DNA of 64,000 nt from the IMG/VR virus record IMGVR_UViG_3300025697_002467; one strand, written 5' to 3'. Below, piece after piece: positions 23,984 through 44,946 of the stretch (positions are counted from its first letter, which is position 1; each line of letters opens with the position of its first letter). The DNA is from a virus (Duplodnaviria; Heunggongvirae; Uroviricota; Caudoviricetes). Below the pieces are notes generated by a model. That model was not told the origin of the DNA. It saw only the letters and a list, made by a program, of their open reading frames with translations, and did not search any database. Position numbers and translations under genes: made by a program.

Positions 23984-23989
23984 TTAAAA

Positions 23990-24975: not shown

Positions 24976-24980
24976 ATAAA

Positions 24981-25878: not shown

Positions 25879-25886
25879 ATATATAA

Positions 25887-26432: not shown

Positions 26433-26595
26433 TTTCTCACCTCTATATAATGAACTTATTATATGATACCCAAAATGACGGGTTTCTCGGGAAGGGATTT
26501 GAACCCTCTTTACACTGACCTTTGGCCAGCATCTTTACCAGTATGTTGCATCTCCGATAATTCCCTAACAGACTGTCATGACAGTCCATTAACAA

Positions 26596-26671
26596 TGGCG
26601 ACCGTATAGGGGTTTGAACCCTAGTTGCCGAATTGAAAGTCCGGTGTCCTGACCAATTGGACGATACGGTC
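26596..26671 (-). tRNA. tRNA-Glu (anticodon TTC)
   Basis: Perfect acceptor GACCGTA/TACGGTC, anticodon stem CCGGA/TTCGG, loop CTTTCAA, encoded CCA. Confidence 0.8.
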
Positions 26672-26719
26672 ATTAAATGTTTTTGTCAGAAAAACTATAC
26701 TTTTTTCTGACAAAATAAA

Positions 26720-26794
26720 TGGCTCCTGGAACAGGATTCGAACCTGTATTGAGACGGTTAACAGCCGTCGGCCTTACCAATCGGCCATCCAGGA
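26720..26794 (-). tRNA. tRNA-Asn (anticodon GTT)
   Basis: Perfect acceptor TCCTGGA/TCCAGGA, anticodon stem GACGG/CCGTC, loop CTGTTAA, encoded CCA. Confidence 0.8.
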
Positions 26795-26842
26795 ATAAAA
26801 TTTCAATTTGTCAACATCCAATAAACTTGGACATTCAAAAAT

Positions 26843-26918
26843 TGGGGTGGATGACGAGAATTGAACTCGCCTAAACTTGGGCCACAACCAAGCGGTCAAC
26901 CACTGACCCACATCCACC
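26843..26918 (-). tRNA. tRNA-His (anticodon GTG) with an encoded G-1
   Basis: Extra 5' G opposite discriminator C73, the His identity element. Acceptor GTGGATG/CATCCAC, anticodon loop TTGTGGC, encoded CCA. Confidence 0.8.
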
Positions 26919-27135: not shown

Positions 27136-27172
27136 ATAAAAAAAGCCGGACACCCTTTTGAGGTGTCCGGCT
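27136..27172 (-). terminator. rho-independent terminator (minus strand)
   Basis: Perfect 11-bp stem AGCCGGACACC/GGTGTCCGGCT followed on the minus strand by TTTTTTTT. Confidence 0.6.
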
Positions 27173-27197
27173 TGTAGCTTAAATTGCTGTTAGGCTG

Positions 27198-27548: not shown

Positions 27549-28508
27549 TTACTGGCCTCCTGCCAAGTCTTGTAGGTTTTTGAAACGGCTGATGTATTCT
27601 TCTATAGGGACGATTGCTGTTTCAGCTACGTCCAAGGTCTTGGCATAATCCACAGCTTTCTGAAGTTTCTCAAGACACTCTTGGATTTGGTCGATATCGA
27701 AACGGACATCGGAAATATCCTTGGGGATACTTGTTATTGGGTTATCTGTTTCATCCAAGTCAATCAGGATATTCATTAACCAAGGCATCTCTGTAGCTAA
27801 AGCCCCTACACATTTATTTCCAGCAGCCTTGAACATCCCCATATCCACCAACCCTTTCAAGAGTTTTGGAGTGTTGAATGTGTCTCGGGCAGCCCTGATT
27901 GTCATCACATTATATCCATCACGCCCATAAGGGATTGCATAACCACTCAAGAAATCTTTTGGACTCATTGGCAATTGGTAGAAAACACTCGTGGCTTTGG
28001 GAGTTTTTAAACTTTCTTTACCGTTTAATGCTTTCTCTTTATCCCCAACTGCCTTATTAAGGTCGTATGGAGCCTTCGTTGCCATCATATCCAATAGGAT
28101 TAGGGAACGGATCGGATAATTGTGATTGGTCATATAGTCCTTAGCCAATTCCCAATCTTTCTCAGTTGTTGGGTGATTCCCTGAAAACTGTTTATAAGCT
28201 TCAACATTACTTTGCCATCCAAGGAATGGGACAAAGGGAGAATCTACAACGTAATCTCCAGGAACTTTATTACCATCATTCAGGGAAGATTCAGAATCAT
28301 TTTTTCCAGAGGGCAAAGTCATAAAACCTGAAGGCTTATTACCTTTGAAATCTACGTACAGGAAATAATCCAAACCGTCCACATTCCCTATCATGAGAGA
28401 CATGCCAGTGGCATCTCTTAATTCAGGGTTGGAGGTATCGGATGTGAACAGGCATGTGCCTCTTACGAAATAATTTCGTTTTTGTCCTTCAATCTTAATA
28501 AGTCTCAT
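27549..28508 (-). CDS. hypothetical protein, distal gene of the NAD/ADP-ribose operon
   Basis: ORF of 319 aa with no recognisable motif; its stop overlaps the NMNAT start region. Confidence 0.6.
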   Translation of the reverse strand: MRLIKIEGQKRNYFVRGTCLFTSDTSNPELRDATGMSLMIGNVDGLDYFLYVDFKGNKPSGFMTLPSGKNDSESSLNDGNKVPGDYVVDSPFVPFLGWQSNVEAYKQFSGNHPTTEKDWELAKDYMTNHNYPIRSLILLDMMATKAPYDLNKAVGDKEKALNGKESLKTPKATSVFYQLPMSPKDFLSGYAIPYGRDGYNVMTIRAARDTFNTPKLLKGLVDMGMFKAAGNKCVGALATEMPWLMNILIDLDETDNPITSIPKDISDVRFDIDQIQECLEKLQKAVDYAKTLDVAETAIVPIEEYISRFKNLQDLAGGQ

Positions 28509-29059
28509 AAGTATAGTCCTTTCTCGACTATGTAATCAAACACATTTTTTGGAATCATCTTCTCTACATAAGGCATATTAGTTTCGTGAGCTGCAATCAG
28601 CTCACGAATCCTGGTGGAACTGATATTAGGCATCTCCCATACCCAAATTGAATCAGAAGACCTTTCTCGTGGAACGACATGTAATCCTATCAGGTTCTCA
28701 AGGATGTTCCAATCTTTCCATCGGTGTTGCTCTAACACATTATCTGAACCTATAATGAAAGTGAAATCATTATCAGGATAGTCCCGTTGCAGGTTCGTTA
28801 CTAAGTGAATGGAGTATTTGGTCTGGTACATCTTCTCATAATGACGAACAATCACATTTGGCCATTGAGAGAAAGCTAACCGGCACATTTCCATCCGAGT
28901 CTCGAAAGGCAACAAGCTGTCATTCTTATCAAAAGCATGTTCCCAACATGGGAGCACCCAAACTTCATCAAATTTCCCAGAAGCTAATGCATCCGTAACC
29001 ATGAAAAGATGGGCTTTGTGTGGTGGGTTAAAACCACCACCGAGAATAGCAACTCTCAT
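28505..29059 (-). CDS. nicotinamide/nicotinate mononucleotide adenylyltransferase (NMNAT, NadD-like)
   Basis: ILGGGFNPPHKAH matches the (H/T)xGH nucleotidyltransferase motif; the ISSTRIR motif is also present. Confidence 0.8.
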   Translation of the reverse strand: MRVAILGGGFNPPHKAHLFMVTDALASGKFDEVWVLPCWEHAFDKNDSLLPFETRMEMCRLAFSQWPNVIVRHYEKMYQTKYSIHLVTNLQRDYPDNDFTFIIGSDNVLEQHRWKDWNILENLIGLHVVPRERSSDSIWVWEMPNISSTRIRELIAAHETNMPYVEKMIPKNVFDYIVEKGLYL

Positions 29060-29787
29060 TACTTCACCTCAAAATCAATCCCCTGCTCAAGCAGGGCTTC
29101 GTAGTTGGTTTTATCAAAACGATACTTGAGGGCTGGTCTGCCCCCACTCCGCTTCTGTCCGTCAGGAGTTAACACACCCAACTTCATTACTTTAGCTCGG
29201 AAATTCCGTTTATCAAGTTTCTGGCCGAGAATGGCCTCATAGACCTCCTGAAGCTCTGTAAGAGTAAAAGCCTCTGGTAGGACGTTAATACCTATCGGTT
29301 GCCACCTGACCTTAGATCTGAGCCTCTGAAGGCCCCTCTTAATGATCTTATTGTGGTCGAAAGCCAAGCTGGGTAATCCTGAGATAGGAAACCACTTAGC
29401 TTTGGCTGCATCGTCTCCAGCTTCGACGGTTACGTCAGCAGCACGGACGAGTGCCAGATAAGATGTGGAGATTACTCTGCCACGAGGATCTCGTCCAGGG
29501 TCTCCAAAGGTATAGAGCTGTTCCATCCAAGCCAGCTTCACGCTGGTTTCTTCTTCCAGTTCCCGAAGGACAGCTTGATCGATGGTTTCGTCTTCTTCAA
29601 GATAACCCCCGGGCAATGCCCACTGGCCTTTGAAAGGGTCGTCTTTTCGTTCAATCAGGAGAACATGGAGTTCATTCCTGTCTATGAACATCTTATCAGG
29701 CCCAATGCCGAACACCACTGCATCTACAGTATTGTCGGCCATTGGGTAATCGTATGTATATGATTGTTTTTTATTTCTCGACTTCAA
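29059..29787 (-). CDS. Nudix hydrolase (ADP-ribose pyrophosphatase-like) with a C-terminal winged-helix-like domain
   Basis: Nudix box GGYLEEDETIDQAVLRELEEETSV. Its start overlaps the NMNAT stop. Confidence 0.8.
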   Translation of the reverse strand: MKSRNKKQSYTYDYPMADNTVDAVVFGIGPDKMFIDRNELHVLLIERKDDPFKGQWALPGGYLEEDETIDQAVLRELEEETSVKLAWMEQLYTFGDPGRDPRGRVISTSYLALVRAADVTVEAGDDAAKAKWFPISGLPSLAFDHNKIIKRGLQRLRSKVRWQPIGINVLPEAFTLTELQEVYEAILGQKLDKRNFRAKVMKLGVLTPDGQKRSGGRPALKYRFDKTNYEALLEQGIDFEVK

Positions 29788-29978: not shown

Positions 29979-30905
29979 CTATTTAACAGGTACTTTAATG
30001 ATGTTTCCGTCAGCGTCACGTTTGATAGCAACGTACACCAAATTAGCAGCCGTCACATATTTCTCATCGTCTTCACGTCCTGGTCGTGAAGCTGTAACTT
30101 CTACCCGAACAGTGATGGAGGTTTTACCAATTTTGACCAGTGATGTCCAAAAACTGATTGCATCACCGATCTTCAAAGGCTTCTTAAACTCAATACCGTC
30201 CATTGCAATGGTAGCCACATCGTGGTTTGTGTGACGTTGAGCTTCCATAGCTCCTGCCAGATCAATCTCAGCCAGAACAGCCCCGCCAAAGACTTCTCCA
30301 CGGTGGTTAGTATCTCTTGGGAGCAGCATTCTACGAACTGCTAAATAACGGTCGATCTTGGAGTTAATGACAATTTTAGCAGTCTCCAATTCTTCATCGG
30401 TAAACATCACCAATGAAATTTCTTCAATGTGGTCCCATTTCCGGGAAGTGGCTGCTTTGTAAGCTATGTTGACACCCAGTTCCAGAGGACAACCATACAC
30501 ACCACAAGAGATGGCAGGGAAAGCAATCGTTTTGCATTGGGTTGCATCGGCCAATTTAAGACTATTCAAGTAGGCTTCATACAAAAGTTTTTCTTTATCG
30601 GTACCATCCGGCAGAGTGATAGCATTATCAATTTCGATGTCTGCAAACAAAGGACCCACGGTATGAATGACGTAACGTGCAGGAAGATTGTACCCTGCTG
30701 TCAGAAAAGCCTCACCTGTATAACAACGGACACCAGGTTCTTTTTCAGGAAGTTGCTCACAAGCAAACTTGAGAGCCGAGCCAGCACCACGATGGATTGC
30801 ACCATCTACACCACCACCCCCTAATAGGGAAGGACGGCCAGCATTAACGATGGCATCAACGATCATTTTGGTAATATCATCTTGAATAACAAGTATTTTG
30901 GTCAT
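29979..30905 (-). CDS. macro-domain (ADP-ribose-binding/processing) fused to a hotdog-fold acyl-CoA thioesterase
   Basis: N-terminus VIQDDITKMIVDAIVNAGRPSLLGGGGVDGAIHRGAG is a macro domain; C-terminus GGAVLAEIDLAGAMEAQRHT...ATIAMDGIEFKKPLKIGD is a YciA/4HBT-type thioesterase. Confidence 0.75.
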   Translation of the reverse strand: MTKILVIQDDITKMIVDAIVNAGRPSLLGGGGVDGAIHRGAGSALKFACEQLPEKEPGVRCYTGEAFLTAGYNLPARYVIHTVGPLFADIEIDNAITLPDGTDKEKLLYEAYLNSLKLADATQCKTIAFPAISCGVYGCPLELGVNIAYKAATSRKWDHIEEISLVMFTDEELETAKIVINSKIDRYLAVRRMLLPRDTNHRGEVFGGAVLAEIDLAGAMEAQRHTNHDVATIAMDGIEFKKPLKIGDAISFWTSLVKIGKTSITVRVEVTASRPGREDDEKYVTAANLVYVAIKRDADGNIIKVPVK

Positions 30906-32135: not shown

Positions 32136-32429
32136 TTATTTTTTCTTTTTAGCAGATTGTGCTGCTTCGATGAATCGGCCAAGGAATTTACTGTAGTATG
32201 TTTCAGCAGTTTCAACGGCAGCTTTCTGTGTTTTAGCTGTGAAATCCTCAGCCCAAACAGCATCCTCTGGGTCAATGATATCATTTTCATCTTTAATCAT
32301 GAAGAACACTTGATATTTTTTCTTGTCGTAGTCAACAGTAAGTTCATCTCCTGGAGCATGAACTAATGCAGCTCCAAAAAAACCATCATCCGAGTACCAC
32401 AAGCCTTTTGATTTCTTCTTAAATTTCAT
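32136..32429 (-). CDS. hypothetical protein
   Basis: ORF of 97 aa. Confidence 0.5.
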   Translation of the reverse strand: MKFKKKSKGLWYSDDGFFGAALVHAPGDELTVDYDKKKYQVFFMIKDENDIIDPEDAVWAEDFTAKTQKAAVETAETYYSKFLGRFIEAAQSAKKKK

Positions 32430-33379
32430 TCATCTTCTCCTAACTTCAAAAGTTTTCGAACCAACTCTTTCATATCCGTTGGCCATAACCATTCTGGTCG
32501 AGGGTACTGAGTATCTGGTGAACCGTACTGAGGTTCACAGTTCAATACGGTATCCTGCCATTTCTTAGGGATTGCTTCGATTCCATAGTAAGCTCCAAGG
32601 AGAGCCCCGACAATAGCACCGTTTGTATCGGTATCCCCACCACGTTGAATAGTGTCTACCAGACCTTCCTCAAAATTCTCAGCATGAAGCAACTGCCAGA
32701 AAGCATTCTGGAGAGCAATCAAGACCCAGCCCATCTGGTGAAAATACTCATCAGGAGGATTCTGTTTAGCATTTGTAAGAGCTTCAATAACAGAAGGAGA
32801 AATTCCCCGTTTCTTGGCCAGTCGTAGAATAAACTCATATATTTCCAAGGGGCTTTCGTCCCTTACCAAGCAGGTATAAAGTGCAAACACGAAAACACTG
32901 TTTGCATCGACACACACCTGATTGACATGAGTGATTCTACAATCGTGTGCAGCCCAACCCATAAATTTATTAGGGAAAGCCAGACCCAGAATGCCTAACG
33001 GGGCAGCCCGCATCATGGCTCCATTAGCTTGGCTGCCTTTGTCAAATCTGTTGGACAGAGATTTGTTGATGGTCCCACCAATACCGAAAGGCATCGTGTT
33101 TCTCCACTCTATGTAAGCCCTCTTAACTTCGTTCGTTTTATACCTGCCGTTTTTCAGGACCGATCGAATCATAGCCAGAGCCATCTCAGAATCATCCGTA
33201 ATCTGTCCAGGAGCTAATTTCCATACTCCAGGGTCACCAAACTCACGAACACCTTTAGGATACCTCCATTGGATGTCAGCAGGGTTCTCAAATTCCACGA
33301 TAGCTCCGAGAGCGTCTCCAACACACATTCCAATGAGACAGCCATCAGTTTTGTTAAGTTGTTTTTTTGTCGGTTTCAT
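32426..33379 (-). CDS. ADP-ribosylglycohydrolase (DraG/ARH family)
   Basis: GCLIGMCVGDALGAIVEF, GQITDDSEMALA and GGDTDTNGAIVGALLGA motifs. Confidence 0.8.
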   Translation of the reverse strand: MKPTKKQLNKTDGCLIGMCVGDALGAIVEFENPADIQWRYPKGVREFGDPGVWKLAPGQITDDSEMALAMIRSVLKNGRYKTNEVKRAYIEWRNTMPFGIGGTINKSLSNRFDKGSQANGAMMRAAPLGILGLAFPNKFMGWAAHDCRITHVNQVCVDANSVFVFALYTCLVRDESPLEIYEFILRLAKKRGISPSVIEALTNAKQNPPDEYFHQMGWVLIALQNAFWQLLHAENFEEGLVDTIQRGGDTDTNGAIVGALLGAYYGIEAIPKKWQDTVLNCEPQYGSPDTQYPRPEWLWPTDMKELVRKLLKLGEDE

Positions 33380-34015: not shown

Positions 34016-35740
34016 TCATTTCATCCTCACTTTGTACATTTTATTACCCTTGGACACAACGACAGCACCGGCATGTTTGCCGAGCTTCATATCACCACCG
34101 ACCACAGGGTCATCAATAATTTTAATTGAGGATGCATTCTTCCGGCTACTGAAAGCCTCCATCTTCTCATCCTCAGTAATGGACACACAAACCCCAGAGT
34201 CCAACGTCACGAAGTTCAAGCCTGTAGGCTGAATATCTTTGACTTCTCGGACATCATAAGATTGGTCAGTCAAATCAAATCTGAAAACCAACCTGTTATA
34301 CTTACCCTTAATTTGGCCGACGACCATCAAGACACCACCTTCAAATTTGGCATCCACGATTCGATAACCGTCCAGTTCCTTGATAGGGATCTGATATGAC
34401 TTTCCAGACTCTGGGAGCAGGGACACATAAACCGAACCCAACAGGTTCTGTATGGCCACACCCGGGTATAGCCTGGTTGCATGTTCCAACACTTGAGCTG
34501 CTTCCTTGGTGGAAGGGATAATGGTGTTCCCTACCTCAGTAAAGATAACTTCATGTATTCGATCAGCAGTACGGATATACATTCGACCATTTGTGTATGA
34601 CACTTCTTTAGTGGTCAGACCAAAAGGTAGGTTCTTTTTCAAGATCATATCCGTCATTGTAATAGGTTGAGTCGAACCATTTATCTGGACAGGACGGCTG
34701 CCACGGGGAGTGAATGTTGTTCCCGTAGCTTGGGTTGGTTGTCCAGACTTAATTTTATCTACGTACATGGCTTTGGTTGTGGCCACGACCAACTTATGAC
34801 CGTCACTCCAGAAATCCTTGATATCCCCATCGTACTCACCAATTTCAGTGATATCCAAATATTGAGTACCTGACAAGGTAACAATCTTGGGTACGAAAAT
34901 CATAGCTGCCCCGATGTCCATAGGCGGAGCACATCTCCTACCATTCTCGAATATTGCTTCATACCATTCACGGTATCCCTTGGGGATAACATCAAAGGGA
35001 TAGGCAGCTTTGGGAACTCCCACGTCCTGATTGAAAACACTAATGCCTTGTTGCATCCGTTCATCAAAGGACATTTTCTTTTTCTTATACCGGCCTTTAT
35101 AAGGATGAATCCCTGTAAACATTTGAAAAGTGACAATGCCGAAGCTGTACCAATCAGAATCAGTTGTGAATTTGTTTTTCTTAACCTTCCAGTCCTTGAC
35201 TGAAGGCATAATTGCCGTGGCAGGATAAGATTTGGTTTGATAGGAATCCACATCAATGAACATCACATCATCGAATTTCTTGGGGATGAGGAAATTCATC
35301 TCGTTCAGGTCTACAATCAAGATACCTGACTTGTGGACGTTCTCCACGCCTTCATGCATTTTCTTGACGAGCTCTTGGATAGTATTAAAGGAAATACCAT
35401 TTCTATCCCTGAAAGCACGGGGGAAAATCTGGCATAAGGACCAAGCATCTTTAACAAACTTGTAAGTGTAACCAATAGGTTTGCCACGGTCGTCTGTCAA
35501 TACTCTCTCAGGCTTAATAACCCTGGGATCAGATATCTGGGAAAGTTCCTGAATCTTGCCGAGGGGGATGACTTTCTTGGGGTCGAAGTAAACTTTGAAG
35601 GCTACCCCACCCTTCTGATAAATCCGACCTTCACCACCCTCACCAACGTAATCACGTTGAGTCAGGCTAATGGCAGCAGATTGTCCTTTGGTATAAACTT
35701 TCATTTTTTTATCCAAGCCCAACCAACGACAGGATTCCAC
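34016..35740 (-). CDS. Hanks-type Ser/Thr protein kinase with a large C-terminal domain
   Basis: Gly-rich loop GEGGEGRIY plus VAFKVY lysine, catalytic-loop-like ILIVDLNEMNF, DVDS, and the subdomain-IX-like DWYSFGIVTFQMFTG. Confidence 0.8.
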   Translation of the reverse strand: MESCRWLGLDKKMKVYTKGQSAAISLTQRDYVGEGGEGRIYQKGGVAFKVYFDPKKVIPLGKIQELSQISDPRVIKPERVLTDDRGKPIGYTYKFVKDAWSLCQIFPRAFRDRNGISFNTIQELVKKMHEGVENVHKSGILIVDLNEMNFLIPKKFDDVMFIDVDSYQTKSYPATAIMPSVKDWKVKKNKFTTDSDWYSFGIVTFQMFTGIHPYKGRYKKKKMSFDERMQQGISVFNQDVGVPKAAYPFDVIPKGYREWYEAIFENGRRCAPPMDIGAAMIFVPKIVTLSGTQYLDITEIGEYDGDIKDFWSDGHKLVVATTKAMYVDKIKSGQPTQATGTTFTPRGSRPVQINGSTQPITMTDMILKKNLPFGLTTKEVSYTNGRMYIRTADRIHEVIFTEVGNTIIPSTKEAAQVLEHATRLYPGVAIQNLLGSVYVSLLPESGKSYQIPIKELDGYRIVDAKFEGGVLMVVGQIKGKYNRLVFRFDLTDQSYDVREVKDIQPTGLNFVTLDSGVCVSITEDEKMEAFSSRKNASSIKIIDDPVVGGDMKLGKHAGAVVVSKGNKMYKVRMK

Positions 35741-35991
35741 CCTTCACCTTTACCACTTGTTGACCGTCCAAGCCCCTTGAAGTTGTACCAATAGTCAGCA
35801 GATCCTGAACGATAGGTATTTACTACCTCTTTGTCATTTTCCAACTCCACCATGATAATCCATTGTCCGTCTTCCGAAGGGGTCGGGAGAGGGTCGGTTC
35901 TGTTAATTTTAATCTTCCACATTATTTTTTCCTCTGTTAAATTGTTTTTTTCCAGCACATCGGCAGATTGTCCTTTGATATGTACTTTCAT
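35701..35991 (-). CDS. hypothetical protein
   Basis: ORF of 96 aa overlapping the kinase start by 40 nt. Confidence 0.4.
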   Translation of the reverse strand: MKVHIKGQSADVLEKNNLTEEKIMWKIKINRTDPLPTPSEDGQWIIMVELENDKEVVNTYRSGSADYWYNFKGLGRSTSGKGEGWNPVVGWAWIKK

Positions 35992-36377
35992 TTTATCACC
36001 GATTTGTATTCGTTAAAAAGTTCAAGAAATCGAGTTTTAGCTTTATTTTCTGTTAGTCCATCACCAGGGTCATCAAAAACACCTATGGCAATGTTGGTAC
36101 CATATGTACCAGCTACTATCATTGGCCCATCAAAACACACAACTGCCAGATTATTTTGGTGTTTAGATGCTTGGTGGATAATGCTATGTATTTTTTCCCA
36201 CAAGGCATCTAAAGAATTTCGTTCCAAATACACTCTAGGGAGCAATACCAATTCCTCATCCTTTAATTCATCTTTAATACGACTATCCCCAGCATAGACT
36301 GTAACAGCCTGACCTTTTGCTTTACTAAAAGCAGCTAGTGGAAACACGAGGGCTTGAATGTTATACAGGATGTTCAT
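35988..36377 (-). CDS. hypothetical protein
   Basis: ORF of 129 aa. Confidence 0.5.
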   Translation of the reverse strand: MNILYNIQALVFPLAAFSKAKGQAVTVYAGDSRIKDELKDEELVLLPRVYLERNSLDALWEKIHSIIHQASKHQNNLAVVCFDGPMIVAGTYGTNIAIGVFDDPGDGLTENKAKTRFLELFNEYKSVIK

Positions 36378-36613
36378 TTTGCTTCTTCTTCCAATAATAA
36401 ATCTTCACCAAAGAGCTGGATAAATTCGGATCGGGTCATAGCCCTAAAACCATCCCCATCTTTAATTACTGCTGGGGTTTTCTCATCATCCACTTTGAAG
36501 CCTGCTTCGATGGCATCCTGCCTTGACATAACCACACGAGCTGATGTTAGTGGGTGTTTGTTTAAAAGCTCAAAGGCTTCATCTAAGGTTTTATTGTCGA
36601 GCTTATCCATCAA
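36374..36613 (-). CDS. hypothetical protein
   Basis: ORF of 79 aa. Confidence 0.45.
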   Translation of the reverse strand: MMDKLDNKTLDEAFELLNKHPLTSARVVMSRQDAIEAGFKVDDEKTPAVIKDGDGFRAMTRSEFIQLFGEDLLLEEEAK

Positions 36614-37107
36614 ATGCTTTCATAGAGTTGGAGGTAAAGTTTCACTTCACCTGTAATGCCCAGTTTGGTAGCTTCAGCAGTAATTTCATCAGCATGAGCC
36701 TGAAGTTCTGAGATTGTAAATCCTGTTTCTCCCCCACCACCTTCGGTACTGCTATAACCTAAGAGATGCCCGAACACTAAAGTGTCAGGATCTCCCTCAC
36801 CGATAGTTTTGGGGTCTGCATCATGGACACAGAATCCGTTCATACCTGATTGTTTCAGGTCTTCCCAAAGGCCATCAGAATCTTGAGCATCAAGAGTTTT
36901 CCCAAACCATGTCAATAATTTTGGTGTTGGAATTTCTTCCCATTCTTCCCGTACAGCTTTTCCACAGATAGGACAAAACTTAGGGACGGGAGCCTCATAG
37001 ACATGACCATCCTCACACACGAAACGAGATTCAGTTGAAAATGTGAAAAACTGATCTTGTGTAACCTTGATCCCCATAATATGTCGAGCATATGCATCGT
37101 ATCCCAT
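36610..37107 (-). CDS. hypothetical protein
   Basis: ORF of 165 aa with a CxxC pair. Confidence 0.5.
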   Translation of the reverse strand: MGYDAYARHIMGIKVTQDQFFTFSTESRFVCEDGHVYEAPVPKFCPICGKAVREEWEEIPTPKLLTWFGKTLDAQDSDGLWEDLKQSGMNGFCVHDADPKTIGEGDPDTLVFGHLLGYSSTEGGGGETGFTISELQAHADEITAEATKLGITGEVKLYLQLYESI

Positions 37108-37110
37108 TGT

Positions 37111-37515
37111 TTACCTCATTCCTGAGTTGTCCGGAACCTGATCTCCGTTATTTATTGTTACAGTACGTCTGGAGAACATCCCTTTCAGGGCATCCAATAA
37201 TTTGTTTTTCATATCCTGAGTTCCATACAGATGGATTTCAGCAACCAAACTACCCTGCCGGATTACAGCAACTGTCACTCCATAACCTCCACAGATACCA
37301 CCTCCCTCTGAAGGGACAAAATCGTGGAGTGCTTCATTGTAAGAGAATGAATCAAATACACCTACCAATTCCATAATCCGCATAATTGGAACCCCAACTA
37401 TTAAGTTCCCTACCAGAGTGGGGATTGGAGTTCCTGAGTCTTCGTTTTTCCTGTGTGGTTTGGATGGGAAAGATATTGTGATGTCACTTTTTTCTAAAAG
37501 TCCTTGGTTATCCAT
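37111..37515 (-). CDS. hypothetical protein
   Basis: ORF of 134 aa. Confidence 0.5.
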   Translation of the reverse strand: MDNQGLLEKSDITISFPSKPHRKNEDSGTPIPTLVGNLIVGVPIMRIMELVGVFDSFSYNEALHDFVPSEGGGICGGYGVTVAVIRQGSLVAEIHLYGTQDMKNKLLDALKGMFSRRTVTINNGDQVPDNSGMR

Positions 37516-37852
37516 AAGTTACTTCTCCTTCGTTTTCCCGTTCAAGTTCCAGAGCTGCCTCAGCATCTTTGAATTCTTCCAACATGTCGGCATCCAGGAT
37601 TTCTTTAATAGTTCGTCTCTTGGCATCAGGAAGGAAATCGGCTAGGAATTGTCGGTGGGTGGTCATTGACCCTGCAGAGGCTGTCATCTCCCACCCTGCC
37701 CCAGTTAAAGCCATCAGCTCTATACTTAACTCAGTGCCTTCTATTATAGACATGACTCCTGAGTACACATAAGGGGATTTTTGTCTCCAAATAATCATTT
37801 TGATCCTCCTGAATATCGTTCTGCACCAGTTTCTGAATGCCATTCTGGCCAA
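37508..37852 (-). CDS. hypothetical protein
   Basis: ORF of 114 aa. Confidence 0.5.
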   Translation of the reverse strand: MARMAFRNWCRTIFRRIKMIIWRQKSPYVYSGVMSIIEGTELSIELMALTGAGWEMTASAGSMTTHRQFLADFLPDAKRRTIKEILDADMLEEFKDAEAALELERENEGEVTYG

Positions 37853-38254
37853 CGTCCGTCAGCTAAACTACCACCGATACACCGATACATCGATACCAAC
37901 CGGTATAGTCGTGGCCATCTATTTCATATTCGTATTTACCATCATATGAGTGCCAGTAAGTCATTTGGTTTCCTCTTTGATTTCTCGAATCCATGCCCAT
38001 TGTAGAACGGCACTTGCTTGAGGTCTACTTGCTCCTGATTCTATATCAGTCCAAATTACACCATCATAATCATGGAAAGCTGCTTCAAGGAAACCAATCA
38101 TCCCATTTTTGTTTCTCCACTGGACAATTATAATTGACCCATAGACAGGTTTCTCAGGGAGAGTTTACTCCTTTTTTCCATTTAACTACCCACCCTTCAT
38201 TAAAATGGTGAGCCTTTGGTTTTTCAAATTCTTTAGTCATCGTCTTCCTCCTCC

Positions 38255-39037
38255 TTAAAATAAATTAAGTATATTAATTTCAACTTCTTGTTTGGAGATA
38301 CGTTTTACAGCACCATCAAAGATTTCAGGATCTAATTCAATCCCTATAAAACCTCTGTTCAGTTCTATACAAGCAACCCCTGTTGTTCCTGATCCCATAG
38401 TGAAATCTAATACTAACTCATTTTCATTTGTGTAAGTTTTAACTAAATAAGTCATTAGTGCAACAGGCTTTTGGGTGGGGTGAAGTTTACTACCTTTTGG
38501 GGTGTTTGGAACACTTTTAAATTTTAACACCGTTTTGGGATTTACCTTTGTTTCATTATAAAATTTTGCTTTTTGGTTTCCCATTTTTATGTGATTAGAC
38601 TTGTTACTATTTCCCTGAAGTTTATATTTTGCTCTATCAAGGCTACTACTGTTTCTCTCGGCTAATTGCTTATTAAAAGTTGGCTTTCCTTTGTTTATAA
38701 AAATGCTTATTGTTTCATGATATTTCATAGGCATATATGAACTTTGTGCCATTCCTGTTGGCATTGATTTTTGCCATATCCAATCATATTTATAATTCTT
38801 AATATTGCTCATTCTCAAAGCACTTGAAAATGGTTCACTACCAAATAAAACAATAGCCCCATTTGGTTTTATTAATTTGTTTAACCGTTCCCACAGTTCA
38901 TCAAAAGGGATAATAAAATCCCATTTACATGCCGTGGTACCATAAGGGGGGTCCGTTATGATAGCATCTACTACAACCCCCTTTTTAATTAAAAAGTCCA
39001 TCTCTTTCAGACAATCCCCATTTATAAGATTAATCAT
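38255..39037 (-). CDS. DNA methyltransferase, N6-adenine or N4-cytosine (beta class)
   Basis: ITDPPYG (motif IV) lies N-terminal to FTMGSGTTGVAC (motif I); HPTQKP is also present. Confidence 0.8.
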   Translation of the reverse strand: MINLINGDCLKEMDFLIKKGVVVDAIITDPPYGTTACKWDFIIPFDELWERLNKLIKPNGAIVLFGSEPFSSALRMSNIKNYKYDWIWQKSMPTGMAQSSYMPMKYHETISIFINKGKPTFNKQLAERNSSSLDRAKYKLQGNSNKSNHIKMGNQKAKFYNETKVNPKTVLKFKSVPNTPKGSKLHPTQKPVALMTYLVKTYTNENELVLDFTMGSGTTGVACIELNRGFIGIELDPEIFDGAVKRISKQEVEINILNLF

Positions 39038-39942
39038 TTTCCCTCTTCCTCAATGATCTCCTCAATGTAAATAGCTCCGACCCCCAAATCGTCGTAATGT
39101 TGCCATTGCTTTTTCGGGAGAGTTTTCTTCTCAAAGGCATTAAGCCTACGTTTTACAAAAGAACCCTTCAGGTTCTTAAAACCCACTATATGAGGAAGAA
39201 CTTCAGCCAGAGGAACAGGGACTGGGGAAAGGTCACTGATATCTTGAAAAGATTCAACTCCATCACTCATCAAAACTACCAAATCTGTGTCTCTGGGATC
39301 TACAAGGAACGTGAAGTCTGGAAAACTTTCCAGTTCATCAGGAGTCCATTCCCAGATGGCTTTTTCTTCACCATCCACAATAACAGTTACTTTCCGGCCA
39401 CCGAAACCAGCCTTTTTCAGAGCTTCCATTCGGTCAGGGCTGCTAAAGTACGAAGGATAAGCTGGAGCACCCCCCTGGTCGATAATGTAAGTTTCAAGAG
39501 AACCATTCCGACGCCGGACTGACACCACACCATCTCCAAAGACCTGAACCTTGATGTAACCGGTAGGTGTGGAGTAAGCTGCCATCAATGTGGCATCCAA
39601 ACACCCCTCCGATAATTCTCTCGGATGTTCTGCAAACCACATCAATCTTTGAACATCAATATTTTTGATCGGCCCTCCTTGAATACACCTTTGTGCTGAA
39701 AGAACCAAAGACCGAGACCCAAAATCGGTATCCTTAGAAGAAGAACATCCATCTGATACAAACACAGCTACAGAGGGTGTTATCTCTTTAAAATCAAAAC
39801 ACCTTGAATAATCCTCACAGACGTGGTGGGAGGAACCAATGGTGAAATAATCATCCGTGTGAAAATGGAACTTCCGGCCATCCTCAATAGGTTTGCCCAA
39901 CGGGGGGAAAAACCTCAAATATCGTGAAATGTCAGGCTGCAT
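39034..39942 (-). CDS. PP2C-type Ser/Thr protein phosphatase-like protein
   Basis: FVSDGCSSS and VLMSDGVESF metal-binding Asp motifs in a PPM-like arrangement. Confidence 0.6.
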   Translation of the reverse strand: MQPDISRYLRFFPPLGKPIEDGRKFHFHTDDYFTIGSSHHVCEDYSRCFDFKEITPSVAVFVSDGCSSSKDTDFGSRSLVLSAQRCIQGGPIKNIDVQRLMWFAEHPRELSEGCLDATLMAAYSTPTGYIKVQVFGDGVVSVRRRNGSLETYIIDQGGAPAYPSYFSSPDRMEALKKAGFGGRKVTVIVDGEEKAIWEWTPDELESFPDFTFLVDPRDTDLVVLMSDGVESFQDISDLSPVPVPLAEVLPHIVGFKNLKGSFVKRRLNAFEKKTLPKKQWQHYDDLGVGAIYIEEIIEEEGK

Positions 39943-39959
39943 AGTAAAACTCCTTTGAA

Positions 39960-40703
39960 TCAGAAAGTGATGGACTGTGAAGGACCGCCGGTGCCCAGAG
40001 CTTGGGACTGGCTGGAAATCGACTTCGAGATGAAGTTGGCCAGCTTTGCCAGTTCGTTGGCTGTGGCATTGGCAATGGCCACATACTGCTGGAATCCACC
40101 GTTGTCACGGTAATCTTCCAGGTAGTGATTCAGGCCATTTGCAGCATCGGTGTTGACACCAATAAGAACCGGCATGATGGACTCAACTGCTTCATCGGTC
40201 TTGGCTTCACGGATGGCATCAGCCACCATCTTCATCGAAACACTGGAGCAGTTGTCATCACCATCGGTAATAACGAACACAGCCGAATTGACAGCATAAT
40301 CCTGTTCGGTCAAGTCCCGACCAAAATCGGTCATTGCTTTGACCGCATTGTAAGTGGCATCAAACAGTGAAGTTCCACCACCGGGACGGATAGTGCCGTC
40401 ATACAGGTTGTCATTGCAGTTGGAGAGGAGTTGGAACCCGTGGATTTCATCAACACGAGTGTTGAAATAAACCACACGTAACATCAGGTTATCCACACGT
40501 TTGTCCTTCTGACAGGCACGAGCGACGGTTTTGACAGCTTCTTCGATGTCCTTTCCGAACCCTGTTACGGAACCTGACACATCAACCACGAGGGTGACGA
40601 GGGTGTATTCGGAAGCTCCTGTCAGGGATTCAATCTTCTGGGCAGAAAATCCGTAGTTGGAACCGGCAATGGTTTTCATTTCCATGTCATCAGTAAATTT
40701 CAT
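39960..40703 (-). CDS. von Willebrand factor A (vWA) domain protein
   Basis: MIDAS motif LVVDVSGSV, plus GGTSLFDA and VFVITDGDDN. Confidence 0.8.
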   Translation of the reverse strand: MKFTDDMEMKTIAGSNYGFSAQKIESLTGASEYTLVTLVVDVSGSVTGFGKDIEEAVKTVARACQKDKRVDNLMLRVVYFNTRVDEIHGFQLLSNCNDNLYDGTIRPGGGTSLFDATYNAVKAMTDFGRDLTEQDYAVNSAVFVITDGDDNCSSVSMKMVADAIREAKTDEAVESIMPVLIGVNTDAANGLNHYLEDYRDNGGFQQYVAIANATANELAKLANFISKSISSQSQALGTGGPSQSITF

Positions 40704-40731: not shown

Positions 40732-41577
40732 TTAGGCCAGGAAGTCCACCGTAGTGGAAAGTTTCATACCTTTAGCAACCATGTCTTTAACGAATGCATC
40801 ACCGAGGAAATCAAAACCAGGCACGTTTGATGAGGCATCTGTCAACAGAGTGATTTTCTGGATGTACTTCGGGTCACTAAAACTGTCAGCAATATCACGT
40901 CCAGAGTTAGCCAAGCAATGGCTGAGGGCTTCACCCGAAAGGGCAATGATGTCAGCTTCTTCCAGAGTCTGGATCAGGCCAGTGTTGATCTGAGTTGTAG
41001 GATCATCAGGATCTGGCACTTGAGCTTTAACAGCACCAAAATGCTCGGTGAAGATGTTGGAACCTTTAGTAACATAGTTAGTTACTGCAATCTGAGCTTC
41101 CCATTCGTGGATAGCATCCAGCAGTTCAGGAACGATACAAGCACCCCAACTACCGATCAAGCAATGAACTGGCCAGATGCAATGTGGGTAACGGCCTGTG
41201 GCATCCAGATCTTCCAAGTATTTAGTAACTTTTGGAAGGAAACTGAACTTGACTGTGGTGTATTCCTCAGTCGTCGGGATTTTTTGACCAGTGGCATCCA
41301 TATCACACTTGACGATTTTACCATTGTCAAGGCCAAGAATAGTGAAGGGGTCAGGAGCAGCACCATCACTGACACGTTTCCACATCGTGGGGTGGCTGAT
41401 GTCCAGATAATGGTGACTATCCAGAGTAACGTGGATATCGTCCAGTTTACCTTTGGTACGTTGAATCATGGTTGCCAGACGTTTCATATCTTCGTCTGCA
41501 CCTGGTACGGCCAAGGTTCCTTTTTTGGGGTGACAGAAATCGTTCTGCGGGTCAATGATAAGCAATTGAATGTTCAT
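40732..41577 (-). CDS. pncA: nicotinamidase/isochorismatase-family hydrolase (PncA-like)
   Basis: LLIIDPQNDFCHPKKGTLAVPGADE matches the PncA start (DxQxDF...GGxLAV); Cys/Lys/Asp triad context. Confidence 0.7.
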   Translation of the reverse strand: MNIQLLIIDPQNDFCHPKKGTLAVPGADEDMKRLATMIQRTKGKLDDIHVTLDSHHYLDISHPTMWKRVSDGAAPDPFTILGLDNGKIVKCDMDATGQKIPTTEEYTTVKFSFLPKVTKYLEDLDATGRYPHCIWPVHCLIGSWGACIVPELLDAIHEWEAQIAVTNYVTKGSNIFTEHFGAVKAQVPDPDDPTTQINTGLIQTLEEADIIALSGEALSHCLANSGRDIADSFSDPKYIQKITLLTDASSNVPGFDFLGDAFVKDMVAKGMKLSTTVDFLA

Positions 41578-41987: not shown

Positions 41988-42301
41988 TTATTATCTCCTG
42001 TTCGGCGTACCCGTAGCCATATGGCCAACCATTTATGTTTGTAAGAGAAATCATATTGTTTCTTTCGTACATGGGATGAGTAATCAGCAATAAACCCGTC
42101 TTTAAGCAATCGACCAAGAACCATCGATGCAATATTAATACTGATTCTGGCTGCCTTAGCAACTTCACGAGATGTTGCAATCCCGTTGATAGAGGCCAGG
42201 CTAGCCAGAACTTTACGTTTTTGGGGGGGCAACTCATCCATTGTAGCAGTGAATATAGGAGTCATTTCATCAAGAACTATTTTTTGGTTTTCTGTTAACA
42301 T
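41984..42301 (-). CDS. winged-helix DNA-binding protein (MarR/ArsR-like)
   Basis: LASINGIATSREVAKAARISINIASMVLGRLLKDGFI HTH region. Confidence 0.5.
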   Translation of the reverse strand: MLTENQKIVLDEMTPIFTATMDELPPQKRKVLASLASINGIATSREVAKAARISINIASMVLGRLLKDGFIADYSSHVRKKQYDFSYKHKWLAIWLRVRRTGDNK

Positions 42302-43401
42302 TATATCTCCAAACCATTAGACAAAATACCTGCCTTAACCAACTCGGCACGAGTACCGAGACTTGGGATAGCTGGGTTTTCTTTGTGCCGAGTTATCTTC
42401 TCAGCTCTACGAGCAGCCCATAGGTAATCTGCAACTTTGGGTGGTTCCATATCTTTAGGGAAAATACCTTTATCTTTAGAAATCAATATCATATGGTCTA
42501 TTAAACCAGACAGGTTAGGGACATCATCCCGAAACAAAACATCACCTATAGTTAGTTTAGGGAAAGGGGGTTCCATACCTGGAGGGTATAGACCACTTGC
42601 CCAAGCATTAGCATACTTAAATTCCGTATCCAGCAGACGAGACATTCTTTCGATGGTCCCATATTCAATAATCTTGCCTGTTTCAGGATCAACTTTACCA
42701 TAGGTAAAAGATACTCCTGTCCAGCTTTTCAGTTCGTCCTCATCGTTATGGTCATCACCATCACCCCAAAGGTCGGGGGAAGGTTTGACGGAGATCAATT
42801 CTTTGAAACACTCACCAAGAACTGAATCAGGGTGACGTTGTGAAATGCCCCAAGCCATCTGGAATACTTCTGTTTTGGTCAGCATTTCCATAGGGTTAGT
42901 GTCAACTTCTCCATCCCCACCTTTTTGGTAGAAGCGGAGGAATCGGTCTTCACATTCGTTGCCTGTACCATGACGAAGGCCACCACCATTCAGGCGGTTA
43001 AAGAAACGTCCGATAGGTGCTCGAAGTGTAGACTTAAAAGAACCTACGATAGTAGGGTCGAGTGCTATACGTTCATCAGCAGCCTTACCTAATTTCATTT
43101 TCATATCAAAAACCAGATCATTAAACAGTTCGGTTATATCGAAATCCACGAATTGAGCTTCAAGAGCATCCACTGCTAATTTTCTAGCCCGTTCGGTTTG
43201 TTCAGGGTTTGTATTGATTTTGGAATGAACTAATATAACATTTTCCACACCCAGAGCCTCTATCAACAGGTAAGCCATCACAGCGGAGTCGATGCCACCA
43301 GACAAGTCCAGTTCAGCTTTCTTTATACCACATTCTCTATGGTATGCTTGAATAGCAAAGATTCGGTTTTGTATTAAAAGTTCAATATTTGGTACACTCA
43401 T
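42301..43401 (-). CDS. nadE: NAD+ synthetase (NadE family, PP-loop ATP pyrophosphatase)
   Basis: SGGIDSAV PP-loop; GTGNECEDRF...GGDGEVDTNPMEMLTKTEV matches the NadE core. Confidence 0.8.
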   Translation of the reverse strand: MSVPNIELLIQNRIFAIQAYHRECGIKKAELDLSGGIDSAVMAYLLIEALGVENVILVHSKINTNPEQTERARKLAVDALEAQFVDFDITELFNDLVFDMKMKLGKAADERIALDPTIVGSFKSTLRAPIGRFFNRLNGGGLRHGTGNECEDRFLRFYQKGGDGEVDTNPMEMLTKTEVFQMAWGISQRHPDSVLGECFKELISVKPSPDLWGDGDDHNDEDELKSWTGVSFTYGKVDPETGKIIEYGTIERMSRLLDTEFKYANAWASGLYPPGMEPPFPKLTIGDVLFRDDVPNLSGLIDHMILISKDKGIFPKDMEPPKVADYLWAARRAEKITRHKENPAIPSLGTRAELVKAGILSNGLEI

Positions 43402-43416: not shown

Positions 43417-43450
43417 ATATCAACAACCCACAACTTCGGGAAACTAAGCC
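43417..43450 (-). promoter_or_regulatory. conserved promoter-like motif, copy 7
   Basis: Immediately upstream of the nadE RBS: GTGGGTTGTTGATATAGAAGGAGAACCAAAATG on the coding strand. Confidence 0.45.
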
Positions 43451-44946
43451 AGTTTTTCAGACATCTCGTTAATTCTCATCACACACAAGGCTTGGTATGC
43501 TCTTGTAGTGGGGCTGAATGCCACATCTTTGTCCAGAGAAGGTCGATCCATCCCAGCCTCTAACAGACTGAATCCAATAGGAGGTTCTTCTCCTGCTTGG
43601 CCAATAATGCCAGTGATCTCAGTAAACTCTGTAAAGCCAGAGGTATTCTGACGGAAAATAACAGGGACACCTGGAAGTGATGCTTTAGCCGGTGCTGAAT
43701 CACAAGTCTTCATTACAGGAACATTGCTGGTCATGCTGAGTTTATAGACTGCCGAAACTCTATCACGGGTCAGATCGGTGAATTCGGGTTTAACGAAGAA
43801 CCCACCAGCACCATACAAACGGCGTTCTTTGATGATACCAAACTTATTACAGAGAGCCTCAAAGTGCAAAACTTTCTTATCGTTGATACTGTCCTCGAAA
43901 ATGTAATCTCCATTATCCAAGTCTGCCTGTCCCACACACATTGCAAGCTGGACATCCTGATCTCCAGAATCAAACCTGATAAAGAAATCCCTGTTAGGAG
44001 TTTCTCTCATCACTTTGAAAGCAGCGGGGAGACCTAATTCTATAGGGCTAAAAGTATCTGGCAAACAAGAAGGTTTACCTGATCTCATATCTCTCATAGC
44101 ACGACAGGCAGTTAAATCATCTCCCCATCTCAGGATATGTTCATGGCCTGTTGTTCCAACGGCTTTCATACCTAATTTCTCAGCCAGATAAACATTAGAG
44201 GTGCTGTTGATACCGAGATCCTTGAGGACTTGTAGAGCTATCTCGTGCATTTCCATACAGGAGCAAGCTCTCATACCGACTTCAAATAAACGGCTGGGGT
44301 CTTTATCGTCCAGAGCATCAATTAAGGACTGTGCTCTATCTGAAACATCCTGTTCATATCGTTCCTGTTCAACGGTGATGATTCGGGTACTGTCGTCTTT
44401 TCCGATAGCTTTAAGAGTAGCATGGACGATGTTTGCTTCATCCTCACAGGTACACCTGAACTCTTTTTTGTCGTTCAATAAAACTTCCGTAGCTACCTGA
44501 ATGGGGAAATGAAGCATCAAGGCCAAAGGTTCCATAACCGAAACAGGAAACGATGGGCATGTGAGTGCAAAGAAAGGTTCTTTCTCACGGACCCATGAAC
44601 CCTTGGGGGCTGCATTGATAGTGACAGAATCTTTATCTTTCAACATCTCAATAGACTCTACCATTCCAGGTGTCAAACTATAACCCATTGAATCCAAAAA
44701 AGAGGCCTCGTGTTGCCGAGGTTGCCCTGTTGGAAGCAATCCTCTAATGACAGTTTCAACGTCAAACGGGACGTAATACATTCCTTTACGTCTGAATGAC
44801 ATATAGAAGGTCTCCTCCCGCATTGGGAAACCAGCTTGTGCCATTGCAAATTTATACCCATCGGTCTTCAAAACTGAAGGACCAGAATATACATATCCAA
44901 GGATATGTTCAATCAGTTCTTGTTCGTATGTGAGTTCCATTTTCAT
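43444..44946 (-). CDS. nicotinate/nicotinamide phosphoribosyltransferase (NAPRT/NAMPT family)
   Basis: TDGYKF (TDSYK-like), IRFDSGDQD (RPDSG-like) and LYGAGGFF (GSGGG-like) motifs. The 500-aa length is typical of NadV/NAMPT. Confidence 0.8.
   Translation of the reverse strand: MKMELTYEQELIEHILGYVYSGPSVLKTDGYKFAMAQAGFPMREETFYMSFRRKGMYYVPFDVETVIRGLLPTGQPRQHEASFLDSMGYSLTPGMVESIEMLKDKDSVTINAAPKGSWVREKEPFFALTCPSFPVSVMEPLALMLHFPIQVATEVLLNDKKEFRCTCEDEANIVHATLKAIGKDDSTRIITVEQERYEQDVSDRAQSLIDALDDKDPSRLFEVGMRACSCMEMHEIALQVLKDLGINSTSNVYLAEKLGMKAVGTTGHEHILRWGDDLTACRAMRDMRSGKPSCLPDTFSPIELGLPAAFKVMRETPNRDFFIRFDSGDQDVQLAMCVGQADLDNGDYIFEDSINDKKVLHFEALCNKFGIIKERRLYGAGGFFVKPEFTDLTRDRVSAVYKLSMTSNVPVMKTCDSAPAKASLPGVPVIFRQNTSGFTEFTEITGIIGQAGEEPPIGFSLLEAGMDRPSLDKDVAFSPTTRAYQALCVMRINEMSEKLA

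Follow-up and report, generated by a model that had tools for sequence, protein, structure and literature searches.

The window analysed here, the whole stretch of 64,000 nucleotides from the IMG/VR virus record IMGVR_UViG_3300025697_002467 (Caudoviricetes), carries a four-gene module that encodes a predicted nicotinamidase, a von Willebrand factor A (vWA) protein of the TerY type, a PP2C-type phosphatase and a Hanks-type Ser/Thr kinase. This module is common to huge phages and to the chromosomes of several bacterial phyla, and it lies almost always in or near genes for nicotinamide adenine dinucleotide (NAD+) salvage and ADP-ribose processing. An initial annotation of the sequence had reported the kinase, PP2C and vWA genes on one strand next to a DNA methyltransferase gene. 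All four genes are present at those sites on the minus strand, and Pfam supports each of them. The constant fourth member of the module, the nicotinamidase, and the surrounding NAD+/ADP-ribose island had been missed, and they provide the strongest functional clue.

Distribution of the module in phages and bacteria

IMG/VR was scanned with an alignment of the kinase, which returned at least 130 relatives, mostly on contigs of 100-620 kb, with kinase identities of 32-55%. Eighty loci were taken, on contigs of up to 618 kb, and jackhmmer was run over all open reading frames (ORFs) of the collected loci. Co-occurrence in viruses was counted in 73 dereplicated loci found through the kinase, each with at least 4 kb of upstream sequence. 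The nicotinamidase, vWA and PP2C genes were all found upstream on the kinase strand in 62 of these 73 loci and all within 10 kb of the kinase in 68, and 61 of the 62 loci retained the order nicotinamidase-vWA-PP2C-kinase. The triad noted at first thus does co-occur in related genomes. The picture is the same when the search starts from another member. Loci found through the vWA protein contained the nicotinamidase in 66 of 66 cases, adjoining the vWA gene, the PP2C in 65 and the kinase in 63. As for the three kinase misses, the kinase lies more than 10 kb away in L191 and L197, beyond the range taken, and in L215 the PncA-vWA pair has the PP2C and kinase genes on its opposite flank. When the nicotinamidase was the starting point, the vWA protein was found in 66 of 69 loci and the kinase in 63 of 69. 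This co-occurrence of partners is far beyond chance.

In compact phage loci (L040, L043, L049, L069, L073, L079 and L087), the four genes abut. Genes for a nicotinate phosphoribosyltransferase (NAPRT), NadE, NadD and an NrtR-like Nudix protein often adjoin the module genes in phages or even lie between them. In a large clade of huge phages, the module comes close to being core gene content. The initial remark that such a triad is rare in phages is true of deposited phage genomes, with matches in 4 of 50,697 records, but not of the phages of IMG/VR.

A scan of prokaryotes, with one genome per species, yielded 129 relatives. The module is carried by Capsulimonadaceae and Chthonomonadaceae (Armatimonadota), on contigs of 4-6 Mb, and also by Pyrinomonadaceae and Blastocatellia (Acidobacteriota), Myxococcota and Spirochaetota. 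These loci have a host-like GC content of 0.5-0.75 and are usually located beside NAPRT, NrtR-like Nudix or ADP-ribosylglycohydrolase (ARH) genes. The flanks of two chromosome-scale loci encode an extracytoplasmic function (ECF) sigma factor, a flavin reductase, an OmpL1 porin and a radical S-adenosylmethionine (SAM) enzyme. The nicotinamidase and vWA genes form the tightest pair, with a median gap of 28-58 bp (28 bp in the bacterial loci, 92% of which have a gap of at most 150 bp), and the median gap between PP2C and kinase genes in bacteria is 13 bp. The bacterial copies resemble the PncA-PncB salvage operons under NrtR in that they lie between nrtR-like Nudix, pncA-like and pncB-like genes; they differ from them by the three signalling genes between pncA and pncB.

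The module was also found in four cultured Variovorax strains on an 800-kb replicon, followed by pncB. This replicon may be a giant phage-like episome. On plasmid 2 of Variovorax sp. SRS16 (NZ_LR594667, 612000..646000), the module is interrupted by IS3 and IS21 insertions, and its vicinity holds genes for pncB, NUDIX, macro, NAD kinase, tRNA-ligase-like, RNase HII, RecX and AlkB proteins among mostly hypothetical ones.

The four proteins and the conserved vWA tail

The gene upstream of the vWA gene is assigned by its sequence to a divergent nicotinamidase. When the family profile was compared with the PDB, the top matches were nicotinamidases, with yeast Pnc1 (2h0r) first (E 3e-17). The putative catalytic triad D9/K171/C221, which aligns with the Pnc1 motifs, and the putative metal ligands D53/H55/H138 are each 97-100% conserved, and the segments 'W-P-x-H-C' and 'D-x-H' also align with Pnc1. 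The assignment of the Pnc1 metal ligands is our assumption. The ORF has no Pfam match at E<=0.01, and its match to NCBIfam NF008623 (nicotinamidase/pyrazinamidase) is weak (29.9 bits vs a cut-off of 174). As it fails curated family thresholds, it represents a divergent subfamily. It also has extra segments, with a length of about 265-280 aa compared to about 180-216 aa for Pnc1/PncA.

The vWA, PP2C and kinase genes form a recurrent bacterial triad, as the early description had it, and this triad is of the TerY-P type. TerY-P (TerY-phosphorylation; Anantharaman et al. 2012; Gao et al. 2020) combines a TerY-like vWA protein with a PP2C and with a Ser/Thr kinase that carries a zinc ribbon, according to PMC10542128, PMC7699616 and PMC4978471. 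The components of the present triad and their vWA, PP2C, kinase order are the same. The genes are co-directional in the window, but a methyltransferase gene and eight small ORFs stand between the PP2C and kinase genes. In many relatives (L040, L073, L079, L087 and most loci from metagenome-assembled genomes, MAGs), the triad genes are contiguous. The canonical triads L169-L173 have the same order, and all five non-orthologous plasmid kinase matches that were inspected lie in vWA-PP2C-kinase triads. Among plasmid-borne genes, triad kinases are indeed the closest to the catalytic domain of the present kinase. In hhalign comparisons, the vWA protein aligned with that of a canonical Sphingobium triad with a probability of 93% (E 2.6e-7), Ser motif included, and the PP2C with that of a Deinococcus triad with a probability of 95%, over the N-terminal half only. 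No PADLOC model matched the vWA protein or the PP2C, and the canonical triads used as a control likewise match no TerY-named model of PADLOC-DB 2.0.0; the negative PADLOC result is therefore uninformative on TerY-P membership. One of these canonical triads (Sinorhizobium meliloti pB, L171 1..5387) is located directly downstream of hxsB, hxsC and hxsA of a His-Xaa-Ser radical-SAM system.

The kinase was first annotated as a protein of 574 aa (34016..35740). Its Hanks domain stands, but its length and start do not. The start is the ATG at 35704 and not the GTG at 35740, as shown by homologues, whose alignment begins only at residue 13, and by independent gene calls; the length is thus 562 aa. 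This ATG overlaps the upstream stop codon as ATGA. Pfam Pkinase matches above the gathering score (E 2.6e-9), covering only aa 110-229. The kinase is of the non-RD type, with the catalytic loop V-D132-L-N-E-M-N137 and the Mg-binding D151. Among 163 homologues, D132, D151, D184, H200, P201 and R257 are invariant, G23/G24 are invariant or nearly so, and N137 is kept in 162. The catalytic Lys and Asp are both kept, K37 in 158 homologues and D132 in all 163, and the activation segment D-S154-Y-Q-T157 is almost invariant. An active Hanks kinase is predicted from these residues. Weak matches were also obtained to the defence kinases PD-T4-6 and MAD6.

The C-terminal part of the kinase, about 280 aa, had been described as a domain of unknown function. 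Structure models computed from database homologues indicate that it is a seven-bladed beta-propeller: the AlphaFold2 model of this half has 28 strands and a predicted local distance difference test (pLDDT) score of 89.6. In TerY-P, the kinase C-terminus is instead a Zn-ribbon or OB fold, and the Sphingobium triad kinase, for instance, carries Zn_ribbon_Top1. Among predicted viral structures, the sole full-length match to the architecture of kinase and propeller is BFVD A0A8S5RYX0 from Myoviridae sp. ctNQV2 (19% identity, E 9e-32). A partial kinase match was found on the human-faecal phage contig MT837596.

The PP2C belongs to Pfam family PP2C_2 (PF13672; E 4.7e-8, above the gathering score), like its counterparts in TerY-P, from which it is far more divergent (33 bits vs 147-156 bits on PF13672). 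Comparison of its family profile with the PDB gave the bacterial phosphatase Stp1 (E 2.7e-4) and weaker PP2C-type matches (E ~5e-3). Its metal-binding aspartates are kept: D44, D64-G65, D137-G138, D227-G228 and D284-D285 are 98-100% conserved, and the phosphatase is predicted to be active.

The vWA protein matches Pfam VWA (E 1.3e-5), and its orthologues are labelled YegL by the Joint Genome Institute (JGI), which we take to be the COG of TerY-type vWA proteins. The metal ion-dependent adhesion site (MIDAS) reported at first is complete (D41-x-S43-x-S45, T111 and D147) and 88-100% conserved, so that an active protein is predicted. The family profile found no match among PDB sequences. The AlphaFold2 model (pLDDT 88.5) matched integrin I-domains and ArnB (8s05_B) in Foldseek. 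The similarity to ArnB is at the level of the fold only. ArnB, which acts in Sulfolobus with ArnA and the kinases ArnC/ArnD, is a vWA protein whose C-terminal region is the target of regulatory Ser/Thr phosphorylation. The present system has no FHA or Zn-ribbon partner, and the biology differs, as the Arn system regulates the archaellum.

The C-terminal tail of the vWA protein (F-I-S-K-S-I-S-S-Q-S-Q-A-L-G-T-G-G-P-S-Q-S-I-T-F) is the best-conserved part of the protein. Across 148 distinct phage and bacterial sequences, the mean column identity of the last 24 residues is 0.74 vs 0.54 for the remainder. This exceeds the value for the first MIDAS segment (0.65) and roughly equals that for the second (0.75). 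S226, S228, S230 and S233 are 98-100% conserved. In the model, the last helix carries this Ser cluster, and disorder is confined to the 10 residues that follow at the very end of the tail. The motif [FW]-[LVI]-S-x-S-[LIV]-x-x-x-S is shared with TerY-P, whose canonical vWA proteins have it on their last helix as [FW]-[LV]-S-x-S-[LVM]-x-x-x-S. S226, S228 and S233 are hallmarks of the TerY type and are common to canonical TerY-P vWA proteins; S230 is specific to the present family. After the Ser motif, the families differ, with L-G-T-G-G-P-S-Q-S-L-T-F here and x-P-G-D-x-V-P-L in canonical TerY-P.

S230 covaries with the phosphatase. It is Ser in 98 of 101 loci with a PP2C gene, whereas 7 of the 11 loci without one have L, I, Y or C at this position (raw Fisher p 1e-6, with only about 3-4 independent lineages). 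These seven loci have no gene between vWA and kinase, which abut directly, and the kinase is catalytically intact in all PP2C-less loci with a substituted S230.

Some loci depart from this scheme in other ways. In L109 ('bacterium' MAG) and L124 (Myxococcales MAG), vWA S230 is replaced by Q, and the kinases carry S154A together with T157V or T157L and have lost the alphaC Glu. Three Capsulimonadaceae loci, in which no PP2C gene was found, have an ARH gene in its usual slot between the vWA and kinase genes. The ARH gene fills that slot exactly in the Capsulimonas MAG loci L125 (1698..2771) and L130 (1759..2832); in L115 (6873..7970), about 1 kb of unassigned sequence precedes it. All three loci keep vWA S230. 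Their kinases carry T157A in L125 and L130, and T157 is kept in L115.

Genomic setting of the module in the window

The genome to which the window belongs is that of a huge phage, and a contig of 402,136 bp encodes a protein identical to the kinase. Among deposited records, the nearest are three 'uncultured phage' genomes from metagenomes, with sizes of 462-595 kb. Large ORFs outside the locus match phage families, and megablast of the 33-42 kb region against deposited phages gave no match.

The module and the NAD genes (Table 1) are all on the minus strand, in a leftward block of 18 kb (about 27.1-45.0 kb). Near 45.0 kb, where the block begins, transcription diverges. In transcription order, the first part of the block comprises the NAPRT-like gene, nadE, two small ORFs, the nicotinamidase, vWA, PP2C and DNA methyltransferase genes and eight small ORFs. 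The second part comprises the kinase gene, three small ORFs, the ARH gene, further small ORFs, the genes for the Macro-thioesterase, the NrtR-like Nudix protein and NadD, a 319-aa ORF without assignment and a hairpin. This hairpin is the sole strong terminator-like site on the minus strand between 27 and 46 kb. A promoter scan did not exceed chance (31 sites seen vs 38.6 expected), and no claim of an operon is built on it.

Table 1. Positions of the module, of the genes inserted in it and of the rest of the leftward block in the window
Feature	Position (strand)	Remarks
NAPRT-like (NAPRT/PncB)	43444..44946 (-)	First gene of the leftward block
NAD+ synthase NadE	42301..43401 (-)	Pfam NAD_synthase, E 1.5e-18
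Predicted nicotinamidase (PncA/Pnc1 family)	40732..41577 (-)	Isochorismatase-like fold; 28 bp upstream of the vWA gene
TerY-type vWA/MIDAS protein	39960..40703 (-)	247 aa
vWA C-terminal tail	39963..40034 (-)	Residues 224-247; candidate phospho-acceptor and docking peptide
PP2C-type Ser/Thr phosphatase	39034..39942 (-)	302 aa
Beta-class N6A/N4C DNA methyltransferase	38255..39037 (-)	Between PP2C and kinase; Pfam N6_N4_Mtase (PF01555), E 1e-35
Eight small ORFs	35701..38101 (-)	33-165 aa; between methyltransferase and kinase; gene calls
Hanks-type Ser/Thr kinase, whole gene	34016..35704 (-)	562 aa
Kinase domain	34919..35704 (-)	Residues 1 to ~262
Seven-bladed beta-propeller (modelled)	34016..34858 (-)	Kinase residues ~283-562; candidate sensor or docking domain
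ADP-ribosylglycohydrolase (ARH)	32426..33379 (-)	Pfam ADP_ribosyl_GH, E 1e-61
Macro domain fused to 4HBT thioesterase	29979..30905 (-)	308 aa; Pfam Macro, E 5e-35; 4HBT, E 1.5e-12
NrtR-like Nudix and winged-helix protein	29059..29787 (-)	NCBIfam NF050029, E 5.5e-46; Pfam NUDIX, WHD_NrtR
Nicotinate-nucleotide adenylyltransferase NadD	28505..29059 (-)	NCBIfam TIGR00482, E 4.7e-31; Pfam CTP_transf_like
Intrinsic-terminator-like hairpin	27143..27173 (-)	End of the block; 13-bp stem, 8 G-C pairs, then a T run

As judged by its gene content, the block encodes a full deamidating route of the Preiss-Handler type from nicotinamide to NAD+, consisting of PncA, NAPRT, NadD and NadE. NadE passes the cut-off of TIGR00552 with 64.2 bits. 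The NAPRT-like protein matches NCBIfam nicotinate phosphoribosyltransferase below the cut-off (E 2.9e-19) and Pfam NAPRTase weakly, and its gene recurs beside the module in phages and bacteria. The NrtR-like protein belongs to an ADP-ribose-responsive regulator family. Together with the ARH and Macro-thioesterase genes, the block reads as an island for NAD+ salvage and ADP-ribose recycling. Homologues of the Macro-4HBT protein are also found near the module in other huge phages (L008, L009, L014 and L051).

The genes that interrupt the module in the window are lineage-specific insertions which do not belong to it. The methyltransferase was correctly described as a beta-class orphan with a DPPY motif ('DPPYG', residues 29-33, preceding 'FTMGSGTTG'). 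It matches a DNA methyltransferase PHROG (E 2e-70), its gene overlaps the PP2C stop codon by 4 bp, and no cognate nuclease gene adjoins it, its neighbours being the PP2C gene and small ORFs without family match. Its link to the triad is not sustained. A methyltransferase gene was found nearby in 7 of 91 sources, namely three copies of the window genome and four genomes with the gene at other positions; as it occupies the present position only in copies of the window genome, it was rejected as a module member. A second DNA methyltransferase gene (56912..57994, minus strand; phrog_116, E 8e-76) makes it one of at least two in the window.

Seven small ORFs upstream of the kinase had been put forward as candidate substrates or regulators. 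Eight were called, none with a Pfam, PHROG or PADLOC family match. Jackhmmer found them only in the three window-genome copies among the 91 sources, except for the 165-aa ORF, which is present in six. Because they are limited in this way to genome copies, they cannot be conserved substrates or regulators, and they were rejected in this role.

On the far side of the block, the window holds 28 tRNA genes (1116..26917), all on the minus strand and with small ORFs in between; for the one at 23265..23340, ARAGORN gave no anticodon. Within this tRNA region, a gene for a 670-aa protein (19435..21447, minus strand) matches phrog_1735 from end to end (E 8e-267), a strongly conserved phage protein of unknown function.

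Known systems, a candidate mechanism and its alternatives

TerY-P has been reported with Ter genes, McrBC/CoCoNuT, DNA-processing genes and type VII secretion genes as partners (PMC10542128, PMC7699616, PMC4978471), and its OB-fold variant is a stand-alone anti-phage system, active against T7-like phages (PMC10542128, PMC7699616). The setting differs here, with a constant nicotinamidase gene, NAD+ salvage and near-core status in huge phages. Association with Ter, restriction, DNA-processing or defence-island genes was not seen in the module neighbourhoods of phages or bacteria; NAD+ salvage and ADP-ribose genes were found instead.

The NAD+ island recalls the known phage pathways in which phage-encoded enzymes regenerate NAD+ from what NADase defence has produced. 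According to the abstracts, these are NARP1 (Adps and Namat), NARP2 (NadV and nicotinamide mononucleotide adenylyltransferase) and NARP3 (PnuC and NadR) (bioRxiv 10.1101/2024.02.11.579819; PMC13464706). The window also holds genes for ADP-ribose processing, and its predicted route differs in being deamidating (nicotinamidase, NAPRT-like, NadD and NadE). The 10 island proteins scanned against NCBIfam matched none of the NARP signature enzymes, and the abstracts on NARP1-3 mention no kinase-phosphatase-vWA switch. Nicotinamidase and TerY are likewise absent from a survey of viral NAD+/ADP-ribose systems. The literature search found no paper that combines nicotinamidase, vWA and PP2C, which is not proof of absence. 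The triad itself is known; with the same proviso, the variant with a propeller kinase, its obligate coupling to nicotinamidase and NAD+ salvage, its spread in huge phages and the covariation of S230 with PP2C do not appear in the literature searched.

A phospho-switch on the vWA adaptor that controls deamidating NAD+ salvage is the reading favoured here. It is considered moderately probable, and its mechanism is one that we infer. The clustered serines in the last helix and tail of the vWA protein would be phosphorylated by the kinase and dephosphorylated by the PP2C, S230 being the PP2C-dependent site. Phosphorylation may alter the way in which the MIDAS face of the vWA protein engages a partner. 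In integrin I domains, the last helix of the vWA/I domain couples to MIDAS affinity. Through such a coupling, phosphorylation of the vWA protein would change partner binding. The nicotinamidase is the likeliest partner because its gene forms the tightest pair with the vWA gene. The switch would then gate the first step of the route from nicotinamide to nicotinate, nicotinate mononucleotide (NaMN), nicotinate adenine dinucleotide (NaAD) and NAD+, and the propeller could sense a signal or dock the invariant peptide at the vWA C-terminus. During phage infection, this switch would adjust the rebuilding of NAD+, plausibly to counter host immunity that depletes NAD+.

Several observations weigh against a switch of this kind. 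The gaps between vWA and PP2C genes and between PP2C and kinase genes in phages often reach several kb, and in the window about 3.3 kb of unrelated genes interrupt the module. The phage loci all fall within a single broad clade, and their synteny is therefore due in part to common descent. S226, S228 and S233 are helical and kept in canonical TerY-P, and they could be structural. The covariation of S230 with PP2C rests on few lineages; L149, which has no PP2C gene, retains S230, and three loci with PP2C have no S230. Finally, the NAPRT-like protein scores far below the NCBIfam cut-offs, so that its substrate may be either nicotinate or nicotinamide.

A wider form of the phospho-switch can be proposed, which is doubtful. 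The module as a whole would be a sensor-switch for the NAD+/nicotinamide state, in which a phospho-code on the vWA tail, set by the propeller kinase and erased by the PP2C, gates the nicotinamidase, and with it the flux through the entire deamidating route, and times the reconstitution of phage NAD+ against NADase immunity. By homology, it would point to NAD+/ADP-ribose metabolism as a possible input or output of TerY-P defence, and the ARH genes of Capsulimonas would hint at cross-talk between phosphorylation and ADP-ribosylation.

The initial proposal was a host-takeover or anti-defence switch, by analogy with T7 gp0.7. The kinase would hit host proteins, the PP2C would limit or reverse its action, the vWA protein would act as adaptor, and the NAD genes would be mere neighbours. 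A huge phage with many accessory genes would suit such a role, as would a kinase and a phosphatase predicted to be active and a propeller that could recruit host substrates. T7 gp0.7 is likewise a phage Ser/Thr kinase, but the present kinase has its own phosphatase and adaptor. The analogy is further weakened by the ordinary chromosomal contexts in which the same module, with the vWA tail and the propeller kinase, is found in bacteria, among housekeeping genes and by pncB and nrtR-like genes, a location in which no host-takeover device would be expected. Moreover, the strict coupling to nicotinamidase would be left unexplained, and host takeover is regarded as improbable.

Alternatively, the phage might carry a TerY-P defence for superinfection exclusion or abortive infection, which would serve ordinary immunity in bacteria, with the nicotinamidase and NAD genes as effector or self-protection. 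The present triad is homologous to those reported as stand-alone anti-phage systems (PMC10542128, PMC7699616), and the weak matches of the kinase to PD-T4-6 and MAD6 fit this idea. However, the bacterial loci inspected are not defence islands and contain NAD salvage, ECF sigma factor, flavin reductase and porin genes. The partners described for TerY-P (McrBC/CoCoNuT, Ter, type VII secretion and DNA-processing enzymes) are absent, and the module is near-core in a large phage clade, not a sporadic accessory. A defence function of this kind is thus unlikely.

It is quite improbable that the vWA protein serves the nicotinamidase as a chaperone for metal insertion or assembly, as vWA partners do for other metalloenzymes, with the kinase and PP2C modulating the vWA protein or acting elsewhere. 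The close pairing of the two genes, the conserved D/H/H metal site and the complete MIDAS would all agree with such a function, but no AAA+ partner of the MoxR type, a usual component of such chaperone systems, was found among the neighbours with Pfam scans or precomputed Pfam matches, and neither the conservation of the Ser tail nor its covariation with PP2C would be explained. That there is no functional link, gene order reflecting descent in one phage clade and the MAG matches being prophages or mis-binned phage contigs, is scarcely credible: the IMG/VR kinases do form one clade with 32-55% identity and many MAG contigs are short, but the bacterial copies include contigs of 4-6 Mb from several phyla, with host-like GC, bacterial flanks and genes that overlap or abut, phages keep the order of the module while surrounding genes shuffle, and the Variovorax replicon and the Capsulimonadaceae chromosomes already suggest that the module exists outside prophages.

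NAD+ depletion is a main battlefield between bacteria and phages, and three phage pathways that rebuild NAD+ have recently been described. The present locus would add a fourth, deamidating route, carried by huge phages. If the phospho-switch on the vWA adaptor is confirmed, this route would be the first with its own kinase-phosphatase-adaptor switch, which implies post-translational control of viral counter-defence. In several poorly studied phyla, the same module would be an unrecognised regulator of ordinary NAD+ salvage. TerY-P, whose mechanism is not given in the three reports consulted (PMC10542128, PMC7699616, PMC4978471), would gain a concrete metabolic partner and, with vWA S230, a testable phospho-site.

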